A DNA stretch of 64,000 bases from an uncultured Nitrososphaerota archaeon (GCA_963799845.1 CAWCYI010000006.1:1024001-1088000), one strand, 5' to 3'. Counted from the first letter of the stretch, positions 48,396 through 50,686 are shown. The notes: a model not told the origin generated them from the sequence alone. Numbers and translations are program-made.

Positions 48396-48874
48396 GGCTC
48401 TATCTGGTTCGCTATTCATGTTTAAGCTTATACCGAGACTAACTATCTGAGTTCGTACGTAACTATGGCAAATATCGAAAAGGATACATCTGGCAGTACA
48501 CGAGATAGTTGTCAACATGTCGAATGTACGAGATAGTTGGCGGTTTGTGATTATTTGTTAGTTAAAGCGTGTTCCGTACGAAACGTGACATTTTGATGAT
48601 TCATTTCAATCCAGAGATCCTTATCGTTTCTGAAGATAGGTGAAATCCGATCAATTTCGAATCTAGGATTGACAACTTCCTCTTAGTCGTAGTTAGCGCC
48701 ATTGGTCTACTAAGTTGACACAAATAGAGAAAAGCTGAGCGTGCGTCTAAACGTTTGGTGCAAATCTCTCCCGTGAAAATCTTCTATTGAAGAAGGAATA
48801 TTAAACATCATCAAGTCACTCCTGTCTGCCTGCTATTTTCCTTTTTTCTCCGATTGTGACGGCCAAGCATGCGA

Positions 48875-50041
48875 TCAAGATTCGTTGAGTACCTGCTCCA
48901 GTACGCTAACGTCCGATGAAAGGCTTTTGGCTAGCTCTGGAACGCTCTCTGGTAGTATCGCGTCTTTGATGACTCTTTGAGCATTGAAGGATGTTTGCCT
49001 CATCTTCTTCGCTGTCAGATACTTGTCCTCCTCGACGTACCTCTGCTTGAATGTAAGCATCTTCCAGACAATGCAGGCGAGTTTCCTTGCAGCATCAACC
49101 TGAGCCTCCTGAGGAGCTTTCCCCCTCTTGATGTGCTTCAGGTAGACTCTTTTGACAGCAGAATCCGTCTTGGCTTTCACGGCTCCACTCACTGCGCATG
49201 TTAGAGCGTACTTCAATATGACGTCGCCGTGCTTTACGTGTTCGTGGTGGGACTCACGCTCTCCACTGTTGTCAGCACCTGGAACGACTCCGGCATACGA
49301 GCAGAGATGTTTCTTTGTGGGGAACCTTGAAGCGTCTCCTATTCTTGCCTTGATGGCTACTGCGGTGAAAGCATTGATGCCAGGGTGACTGAACAGAAGC
49401 TGGCAGTCTTCGTCTGAGGCTGCCATCTTTGCAATCTCGGTCTCAACCTCCGTATGCTGGGTTGCATAGAACTTGAGCTCCGAAAGATGCAATGCGAGAG
49501 CCAGCCTGTCTTGCTTTGGAAGCTCTATCTCTCCGAGCTTTTGAAGACCTCCGTTACTGAACACGTCAGAGAATTCTGAGAACTCGCTCTGGACCATGTT
49601 TCTCTCCAGTAGAGTCTGGATCTGGTTCTTTACTCTCGATATCTTTGCGCCAATCTCTATCTGTTGGGTCACAAGAAAGCGCATGTCTTCTATGTACTGT
49701 GAGGGAACGTAGCACCTTCTCAAGTAGCCCAGTGCATCCTCCTTGACGATACGCTCGCAGTCTCTCTTATCGGTTTTCACAGATGCTTTCTTCTCTGGTG
49801 GCGCAACCATGTGAATCACGTGCTGGTTTGATGCGAAAGAAGAAATCATTCTCGTGACCGCCTTTCCAGTTGTGCTAGATTCGATGACAAATACAGATTT
49901 GTCCGGAATCTTTGCTAGCATCTCAGAGACTCCTGCCCTGCTCGTCTTGAAGACGAAGGATTGTATGGGTGACTCTTCTCCGTCCGCGAAGACCTGCGTG
50001 GTGCAGCTCTTCTTATGTGCGTCTATTCCGACTCTCGTCAT
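48875..50041 (-). CDS. IS110 family DEDD recombinase/transposase
   Basis: GIDAHK, IESST, KTDKRD; C-terminal HPGI, SYAGVVP..NSG, ARKL. Confidence 0.95.
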   Translation of the reverse strand: MTRVGIDAHKKSCTTQVFADGEESPIQSFVFKTSRAGVSEMLAKIPDKSVFVIESSTTGKAVTRMISSFASNQHVIHMVAPPEKKASVKTDKRDCERIVKEDALGYLRRCYVPSQYIEDMRFLVTQQIEIGAKISRVKNQIQTLLERNMVQSEFSEFSDVFSNGGLQKLGEIELPKQDRLALALHLSELKFYATQHTEVETEIAKMAASDEDCQLLFSHPGINAFTAVAIKARIGDASRFPTKKHLCSYAGVVPGADNSGERESHHEHVKHGDVILKYALTCAVSGAVKAKTDSAVKRVYLKHIKRGKAPQEAQVDAARKLACIVWKMLTFKQRYVEEDKYLTAKKMRQTSFNAQRVIKDAILPESVPELAKSLSSDVSVLEQVLNES

Positions 50042-50082
50042 TGGTTTCGATTCATACTCCTATTGTTTGACTGGTTGTTTGC

Positions 50083-50262
50083 GTCATGGATCCCAGACCG
50101 ACAATCTCCCGTACGTCCATTATGGACAAGCGGGCCGGTCGTTTCGATCATCGTCAATTGTGACGATGACTGTGCAGCCATGCTGGGGAACATGCACAAG
50201 GCACAAGAGATTCGAAGGCTGCGGGGATCCATGACCACAACTCCAGCTGTCTCTTGCTGGAG
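50083..50262 (-). ncRNA. Predicted bridge RNA of the IS110 element
   Basis: 12-bp closing stem, 9-bp and 7-bp hairpins, two internal loops with 7-nt guides matching target and donor junctions. Confidence 0.85.
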
Positions 50263-50686
50263 GGGAGAGGCTAATCTAAGATTTTCATGCCCGCTGGGAA
50301 TTCGGCGCACATCCCACGATTTACGCTCGAAAAAGTGGATTCTATGAACTCGTGATGGGTGCGAAGGGGATGGGATTTGCTCCTACTGTAGATTAGGATG
50401 GTAAATAACTATCAACGCTCTAAATGCAAAGAAGGAAGAACACCGGGCTAAAGTTTCTCGGAATTGAAGCCAAGGATCCTCGGTCCATGGTGTATCCAGA
50501 CCTCAAACTTTGAGCGACCTTAATAATAGGAACCAGAAAATTGGTTCTTCTCATCTATTTCTGTCTTGTTGCACTCGCTGGTTCTAGTCTTCAGAACAGC
50601 GTATGTGGAGAGAAGGAACGAATCCTCAGTGTTCTTGAGCCTAGAACTAAATAGTCAATTCAGAATTATTCCAAAACAAAGAAACC

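Follow-up and report, generated by a model that had tools for sequence, protein, structure and literature searches.

A probable bridge RNA in the left end of an IS110-family insertion sequence from a Nitrososphaerota archaeon, with guides in the order of IS1111-type seekRNAs

The insertion sequence, its ends and its recombinase

We analysed a 64,000-nucleotide (nt) stretch of DNA from an uncultured Nitrososphaerota archaeon of soil (GCA_963799845.1, CAWCYI010000006.1:1024001-1088000), hereafter the window, whose minus strand carries an insertion sequence (IS) of the IS110 family of ~1.5 kb. The region at positions 50083-50262 is part of the 5′ non-coding end of this element. From the evidence described below we conclude, with a probability of about 0.9, that the transposase-sense strand of this left-end non-coding region, in an IS110-family element of a Nitrososphaeria-type archaeon, codes for a bridge (seek) RNA.

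The whole insertion sequence, with both copies of its core dinucleotide included, occupies 48768-50295 on the minus strand, and its body without the cores occupies 48770-50293 (1524 bp). The ends were obtained by comparing four copies in the same genome, which are 99.5–99.8% identical over ~1530 nt. The three sister copies (C6:927396-928943, C6:959639-961175 and C4:1233464-1234999) reside in unrelated contexts, and the flanks of the four copies diverge exactly at the proposed ends, being unrelated beyond ~10 bp. In the transposase sense, each copy reads flank-AG/CGGGCATGAAAATC...GATTTTCACGGG/AG-flank. These are the same ends as those given in a preliminary description of the locus, whose coordinates and sequence matches were all found to be correct upon a base-by-base reading of the minus strand of 48600-50450.

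Related elements were collected from genomes and metagenomes. A protein search yielded 169 relatives at E ≤ 1e-10, a metagenome scan gave 79 loci and a genome-contig scan using a single protein gave 3 loci; a class-wide genome search returned mostly distant relatives of 25–33% identity. We retained 42 distinct left ends (LEs), after dropping an exact duplicate (L078; loci are denoted by L numbers) and excluding the three identical sister copies. The LE and right end (RE) termini recur in these relatives. The core dinucleotides at the RE junction (48768-48769) and at the LE junction (50294-50295) both read CT on the plus strand and AG in the sense direction, and this AG (= CT) core is present at both ends of all four own-genome copies. 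AG follows ...CACGGG in these four copies as well as in every RE recovered from the relatives, where the RE search pattern itself required AG, and it precedes the LE in 42 of the 42 aligned elements, columns 1-2 of the alignment being invariant.

The element also has subterminal inverted repeats of 12 bp, both on the minus strand. The RE arm (48772-48783; sense AAGATTTTCACG) has a GATTTTC core that is conserved in the relatives, the LE arm (50278-50289; sense CATGAAAATCTT) has a GAAAA that is invariant in the 42 aligned LEs, and the RE arm and the reverse-complemented LE arm have the same base at 11 of 12 positions. The non-coding LE is 252 nt long and the non-coding RE 105 nt. The RNA region is located in the LE, upstream of an open reading frame (ORF) of 388 codons, and it lies upstream of the gene in all 42 relatives too.

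This ORF (48875-50041, minus strand) encodes the transposase/recombinase, which has 388 amino acids (aa) in the window copy and 409 aa in the sister copies. It matched PF01548 (the N-terminal DEDD RuvC-like domain; E = 1.3e-8, score 35.3 bits, cut-off 29), PF02371 (the C-terminal Tnp domain; E = 2.6e-16) and the NCBIfam model NF033542, "IS110 family RNA-guided transposase" (score 174 bits, cut-off 140; E = 4.6e-51). A profile made from 30 family sequences matched the IS621 transposase (8wt6_A) with E = 1.5e-8; a single-sequence phmmer search against the PDB gave no match. The AlphaFold2 model had a mean predicted local distance difference test (pLDDT) score of 87.6 and a predicted template modelling (pTM) score of 0.81, and all of its top 10 Foldseek matches in the PDB were chains of IS621 or ISCro4 synaptic complexes (E = 8e-12 to 2e-10; template modelling (TM) score 0.66–0.70, normalised to the target length). 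Of the catalytic residues, as seen in an alignment of 30 proteins, D7 and D94 were conserved in 30/30, and E54 and D91 in 29/30 each, while S259 was S in 25 and T in 5. The NSG motif of the family stands opposite to the ESG of IS621 in the profile alignment to 8wt6_A; the equivalence of S259 to S241 of IS621 (approximate) was derived from a residue count with an assumed offset of two residues.

The close protein relatives are labelled as Nitrososphaerota or Nitrososphaerales archaeon, and a partial small-subunit (SSU) rRNA on another contig of the assembly scored best with the archaeal model (776 bits). A search of the 4.6-Mb own genome (86.68% complete) for archaeal amoA (PF12942) gave no match, which is uninformative, as control genomes had no match either.

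The left-end RNA and its guides

The predicted core of the bridge RNA (50083-50235, minus strand) consists of a 12-bp closing stem around a target-binding loop (loop 1), a central hairpin and a donor-binding loop (loop 2). The closing stem is perfect, GUCAUGGAUCCC (50235-50224) being paired with GGGAUCCAUGAC (50094-50083). An inner hairpin (50192-50204) caps loop 1, a 9-bp hairpin (50148-50169) stands between the two loops, and a 7-bp hairpin, CUCCAGC/GCUGGAG (50241-50262), precedes the core on its 5′ side; all of these are on the minus strand. The unconstrained minimum-energy fold of 50042-50300 of this strand gives the same architecture, and so reproduces the 7-bp hairpin, the 12-bp stem, the two internal loops and the 9-bp hairpin of the preliminary description. 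The free energy of this fold is −92.5 kcal/mol compared with −73.0 ± 4.9 kcal/mol for shuffled sequences (z = −4.0), and 0 of 200 shuffles were as stable.

We observed that RNAalifold recovers the closing stem, both loop stems and both inner hairpins from the related elements. In the alignment of 42 LEs, 97.9% of the cells of 32 curated scaffold pairs were paired, compared with 30.7–43.3% when the partners were slid, and changes on both sides were seen in 20 of the 32 pairs as against 9.7 ± 1.7 upon shuffling (0/500 as high). The scaffold pairs thus covary across related elements, which is a check that the preliminary description had proposed. In the inner hairpin of loop 1 (helix 3), 3 of the 4 pairs are changed on both sides. 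Outside the conserved scaffold are two hairpins, the one at the 5′ side and the central one of 9 bp, which were seen in no element other than that of the window, L005 and L038; the former is not conserved beyond close relatives and the latter is a lineage-specific insert. Among the 1344 cells, there were 126 G:U or U:G cells and only 10 A:C or C:A cells. Therefore, the transposase-sense strand is the strand that folds as RNA.

In the same alignment the scaffold is conserved and both sides of loop 1 are variable. The 5′ guide of loop 1, UUCGAAUCU-CU (50206-50216, minus strand; equivalent of the left target guide, LTG), would pair with the transposase-sense strand at the core and the right flank, and its segment AAUCUCU (50212-50206) is identical to 48763-48769 of the plus strand. 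The 3′ guide, UUCCCC-AG (50183-50190, minus strand; equivalent of the right target guide, RTG), has identity with the sense-strand left flank and the core. Its UCCCCAG (50189-50183) agrees with the minus-strand TTCCCAG (50300-50294) at 6 of 7 positions in the window copy and with all 7 positions of the left flank in each of the sister copies (sense ...TCCCC-AG), so that the mismatch is found in the window copy only. The ideal right half-target, GGGGA, that the preliminary description had predicted is thus present at all three sister copies, and its proposal to compare the flanks of other copies is borne out for this half-site. The loop-1 guides that it described do have the identities that it gave, but the length of 7 nt assigned to the 5′ guide is too short, as this guide spans ~9–11 nt (UUCGAAUCUCU, 50216-50206). 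The CA that follows the 3′ guide (50182-50181) is a likely handshake position.

We compared the loop-1 guides of the relatives with the flanks of the same elements. For the 5′ guide (7 non-core nt), 147 identities with the reverse complement of the right flank were counted over 25 elements, against 58.1 ± 7.7 after shuffling of the flanks (0/10,000 shuffles as high). The match was 7/7 in 12 of these elements, 6/7 in 8, 5/7 in 2 and ≤2 in 3; among the three poor ones, L051 and L072 are one-column register shifts as judged by eye, and L045 is not explained in this way. For the 3′ guide (6 non-core nt), 176 identities with the left flank were counted over 42 elements, against 79.6 ± 7.8 (0/10,000), with matches of 6/6 in six elements and of 5/6 in eight. 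The closest relative, L005, whose protein has 83% aa identity, carries wholly different guides that fit its own flanks: UUCGUUAG with TTCGTTAG (8/8) and CUUAUGUC with GACATAAG.

Loop 2 was found to read the ends of the element. Its 5′ guide, CGGCCCG-CU (50129-50137, minus strand; equivalent of the left donor guide, LDG), contains GCCCGCU (50135-50129), which is identical to 50289-50295 of the plus strand and is complementary to the sense core and the start of the LE (AG-CGGGC). Its 3′ guide, UACGGG-AG, together with a handshake-like A at 50105 (50105-50113, minus strand; equivalent of the right donor guide, RDG), matches the RE terminus CACGGG-AG, and its ACGGGAG (50112-50106) is identical to 48774-48768 of the minus strand. 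These guides follow the ends of the respective elements. The donor 3′ guide tracks the RE, being ACGGGAG in most elements, UCGGGAG in L011 and AUGGGAG in L051 and L053, and the donor 5′ guide tracks the LE in L082, where GCCUGCU goes with an LE start of AG-CAGGC. The assignment of GCCCGCU to the LE and of ACGGGAG to the RE as donor guides, made in the preliminary description, is upheld by this covariation in L011, L051, L053 and L082. Its general scheme, with a CT core, a target specified by loop 1 and a donor specified by loop 2, is likewise backed by the covariation of the guides and of the structure as well as by the family and fold of the protein.

We also observed that the base following the core in the donor loop agrees with the base at which the target flank begins in 19 of the 20 elements that could be parsed (0/10,000 shuffles), 5 of the 25 elements not being captured by the parsing pattern. 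Handshake guides have been described for IS621 (PMC11208158), and the donor-loop base behaves alike here.

One may argue that the structured LE is a mere 5′ untranslated region (UTR) or regulatory element, that the protein reads the subterminal repeats and a palindromic site, and that the guide matches are coincidental. The RNA region indeed abuts the ribosome-binding site and the start codon, the 12-bp subterminal inverted repeats are present, and the sister sites share ~3 bases (GAA) outside the guide footprint and are partly palindromic. However, the guides vary among relatives and follow their own flanks, neither of them being equalled in 10,000 shuffles, the donor guides covary with the ends of the elements, and the donor-loop base tracks the target flank in all but one of the parsed elements. 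As covariation of the guides, of the donor ends and of the handshake base is not expected for a UTR, this explanation is strongly disfavoured and we consider it highly improbable.

With the LE read as the source of a bridge RNA, the following steps may be proposed by analogy to IS621 and the IS1111 elements. The element would excise as a circle in which the RE is joined to the LE across one AG/CT core, and the DEDD/Ser recombinase would bind the RNA. Loop 2 would pair with both strands of the RE-core-LE junction (through GCCCG-CU and ACGGG-AG; the junction would read RE...CACGGG-AG-CGGGCATG...LE in the sense direction), and loop 1 would pair with both strands of the target through (U)UCGAAUCU-CU and UCCCC-AG. 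Strand exchange at the core would then insert the element in one orientation. That the RNA is transcribed and processed, that a circle forms, that the protein is catalytically active and that the system can be reprogrammed are inferences from these analogous elements.

Occupied sites, expression and the state of the window copy

Several results weigh against the presence of a functional bridge RNA system at this locus. The elements compared are kin and some of them have common targets, so the permutation tests overstate their independence; the diversity of the guide-flank pairs is nonetheless large. Several donor 5′ guides, for example those of L059, L061 and L010, have one mismatch to their own LE. 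The RNA region had no match in Rfam 15: at E ≤ 10 it gave only a chance-level hit to bxd_5 (E = 2.7), and the whole window gave nothing at the gathering score.

The sites occupied in the own genome are also not ideal. The left half-sites of the sister copies fit the loop-1 5′ guide at 5–6 of 7 non-core positions; by a hand count, the non-core CGAAUCU of this guide matches at 6/7 in the window copy and L002 and at 5/7 in L003 and L004. Scored by eye with a 17-nt model, the four occupied sites match the loop-1 guides at 13–14 of 17 positions, and 27 unoccupied sites in the own genome score 14–15/17, which is equal to or above the occupied ones. No unoccupied perfect target was found in this genome, the best being two sites at 15/17, and scans of it with looser patterns revealed no repeat family underlying the target. 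Either base pairing alone is insufficient for the choice of site, or the guides have drifted after insertion.

The three sister sites have in common a partly palindromic site of ~24 bp, yGAATCCCC-AG-nnAyTCGGAC. About three of its conserved bases (GAA) lie beyond the guide footprint, and these may represent a structural or protein-read part of the target choice.

The expression data are weak. In a peat metatranscriptome, a contig of 169 nt with a depth of 3.4 is identical to 50065-50233, nearly coincident with the predicted RNA core (50083-50235), and carry-over of DNA is possible. The other RNA contig, of 198 nt and a depth of ~3, comes from a second metatranscriptome, lies inside the ORF and could likewise come from DNA carry-over. 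The stretches of the element that lack cover by RNA contigs are uninformative either way. The three best DNA matches to the element come from soil metagenomes of another study. Among the assembled contigs of four sequencing runs, neither a circle junction nor an empty-site joint was found; loose contig ends at 48767 and 50303 were read as flanks of sister copies, one of them being matched to L004 by eye. We did not identify a promoter in the element, and a TATA-like TTTAATAT in the RE of the window copy is not conserved in the relatives.

Next to be weighed is the state of the recombinase gene in the window. An extra base at 48892, which neither the three sister copies nor the contigs of two soil metagenomes have, shifts the reading frame. 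The final residues are thereby altered and a conserved basic tail of 21 residues (..YSTNLDRMLGRHNRRKK..) is lost from the C-terminus, so that the protein has 388 instead of 409 aa. The word "intact" used in the preliminary description therefore holds for the RNA and for the sister copies and not for the transposase of the window copy. It could be that this copy is disabled or non-autonomous, with an intact RNA and an impaired recombinase, and moves only if it is served in trans by its sisters. The lost tail is conserved in the relatives at 77–86% identity, and the window copy is the one whose left flank mismatches the 3′ guide. On the other hand, all the catalytic residues and both Pfam domains are located upstream of the shift, IS621 is shorter still (chains of 305–319 residues among the structure matches), and the extra base may be an error of the assembly. 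Taken together, we consider the loss of autonomous function in this copy possible and rather doubtful.

Guide polarity and relation to the IS110 and IS1111 groups

In the transposase sense, an integrated IS621 is reported to read LT-CT-RD(LE)...LD(RE)-CT-RT, where LT and RT are the left and right target and LD and RD the left and right donor, so that LT-core-RD is at the 5′ (LE) side (PMC11208158). In the archaeal element, the CT core is carried by the antisense strand of the transposase. The sense strand of the right flank is here the partner of the 5′ target guide, and of the two donor guides the 5′ one reads the LE and the 3′ one the RE. With the CT on the antisense strand, the guides thus follow the order of the IS1111 (seekRNA) elements and not that of IS621. 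In this respect, the model on which the preliminary description had relied, IS621, has to be replaced by that of the IS1111-type seekRNAs.

Compared in the polarity of IS621, the guides and flanks of the relatives gave no signal: the left flank had 67 identities with the 5′ guide (versus 74.6 ± 6.4), and the reverse-complemented right flank had 29 with the 3′ guide (versus 36.6 ± 4.8). This absence bears on the view that the element is a canonical IS621-type one that only seems reversed in polarity because its ends were mis-assigned or the wrong strand was taken for the RNA. Such a view would accommodate an RNA that precedes the transposase gene, which is the arrangement reported for the IS110 group (PMC11187229), and also the RNA-level endings of the guides, CU in the 5′ and AG in the 3′ ones, which are those of IS621 (PMC11208160). 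However, apart from the missing signal, the ends are fixed by the four copies, the RNA strand is fixed by the excess of G:U over A:C cells, and LT-core-RD of IS621 is reported at the 5′ (LE) side. We accordingly give an artefact of polarity very little credence, and retain the seekRNA-like order of the guides.

The likeness to IS621 of Escherichia coli (Durrant et al. 2024, PMC11208160; Hiraizumi et al. 2024, PMC11208158) is otherwise extensive. Both have a DEDD RuvC-like domain and a Tnp domain with a catalytic Ser, in the same fold, and an RNA in the left end upstream of the gene with two internal loops, first target and then donor. In both, the 5′ guide of each loop ends in CU and the 3′ guide in AG, the 5′ guide is longer (~9 nt) and the 3′ guide shorter (~6–8 nt), handshake-like bases lie past the core, and the T of the core is almost invariant and the C less so. 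The archaeal protein, however, shares only 17–18% sequence identity with IS621 in the structural alignment, and the donor reading is reversed, as IS621 is reported to have LD = RE and RD = LE. The host is also different, being an archaeon, and so no sigma-70 promoter could be rebuilt across the junction.

Subterminal inverted repeats of 7–17 bp are reported for the IS1111 group and of 2–3 bp for the IS110 group (PMC11208160). The 12-bp repeats of the archaeal element are therefore unlike those of the IS110 group, to which IS621 belongs, and fall inside the range of IS1111. In the IS1111 seekRNA elements ISEc11, ISPa11 and ISKpn4 (Siddiquee et al. 2024, PMC11187229), the guide complementary to the top (transposase-sense) strand precedes the one that matches the bottom strand, as in the archaeal RNA, and some relatives of the window element resemble this group in that they sit in other mobile elements. 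This likeness was drawn from the features of the RNA and of the element's ends and sites. In contrast, the RNA region lies upstream of the transposase here and downstream in IS1111; an upstream non-coding region has been noted in only "a few" IS1111-type IS (PMC11187229). Hence, the element fits neither subgroup cleanly, having an upstream RNA, which is an IS110 trait, together with the guide polarity and the subterminal repeats of IS1111. It does have all the defining features of IS110-family RNA-guided elements that can be tested in silico.

As to the mobile elements that are occupied, 10 of the 42 relatives (L059, L061, L063, L066, L067, L068, L074, L079, L080 and L116) are inserted at ...CAYCCNCAG. 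In the five that were translated (L059, L067, L074, L079 and L080), this site corresponds to the HPQ codons of an rve-type integrase gene, and in both of those checked on the other side, L067 and L080, the frame runs on as TNGK.. past the element. The left flank of L067 (L067:1-513) matched PF00665 (E = 1.4e-20), the match ending at profile position 102/102. The guides in this sublineage, which is inserted at the conserved HPQ/TNGK motif of rve-type integrase or transposase genes, are ..CCNCAG and ..GUUGGU-CU/UU. Other transposons serve these elements as landing sites.

The best named relative in tblastn searches was ISAtu7, an IS110-family element of Agrobacterium plasmids such as pTiBo542 (28% identity, E = 7e-34), and the plasmid matches were mainly from Agrobacterium, Rhizobium and relatives. 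ISAtu7, a comparison that was worked through in part only, also has an upstream non-coding region of ~255 nt, a right end of ~30 nt, an LE beginning with CGGGCATG and a two-loop fold. Its polarity is the same, as the left flank together with the core has the sequence of the 3′ guide, GUUGUUAU. The pTiBo542 element (L131, ~662-2130) is inserted in the IS66-family element ISRel19; both pTiBo542 copies are inside a larger duplication, and the ends were solved with the help of an empty site from another plasmid. ISAtu7 differs in its bacterial host, in a core that appears to be AT, in a 5′ target guide that by eye fits the flank only partly, and in a fold that is no better than those of shuffled sequences (z = −0.63). 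It appears to share the layout of an upstream RNA with IS1111 polarity, and in the light of these features this layout is probably not confined to archaea.

The mechanism as such is not new, as this type of system has been known since 2024 and has already been mined at a large scale. Bridge RNAs are predicted in 85.7% of the IS110 and 93.0% of the IS1111 entries of ISfinder (PMC11208160), 32,190 bridge-RNA loci are modelled from bacterial and archaeal data (bioRxiv 10.64898/2026.10.21.760802), and archaeal IS110 recombinases are catalogued (n = 662; bioRxiv 10.1101/2024.06.21.599552). Our literature searches found no paper devoted to an archaeal bridge RNA as such, and the supplements of the 2024 papers may already tabulate such elements or this polarity. 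The element described here is a well-supported new example, and there is a modest chance that its mixed architecture is worth describing. As a natural archaeal bridge-RNA system it is fully decodable, since the four guides, the core, the handshake-like position and the ends can all be read and covariation is seen in 42 relatives. For use as a tool, it would offer a compact recombinase-RNA pair remote in sequence from IS621, with a defined donor, GCCCG-CT-CCCGT, and a defined target, TTCGAATCT-CT-GGGGA.

To judge from their sequences, archaeal lineages appear to carry working-looking copies of such systems. The location of the RNA and the polarity of the guides, which have been treated in the literature as coupled in the IS110 and IS1111 groups, can be uncoupled. 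We tentatively suggest, as a possibility that we hold to be less than probable, that the RNA-guided elements of the IS110 family have a third, circularly permuted architecture, represented by the Nitrososphaeria clade and perhaps also by ISAtu7-like elements of bacteria, in which the RNA lies upstream as in IS110 and the polarity and the long subterminal repeats are those of IS1111. Such an architecture might be a link between the two groups and would include a bridge recombinase that works with archaeal transcription, as well as a sublineage whose guides are set to the HPQ/TNG codons of rve-type transposase genes and which takes other transposons as its landing sites.

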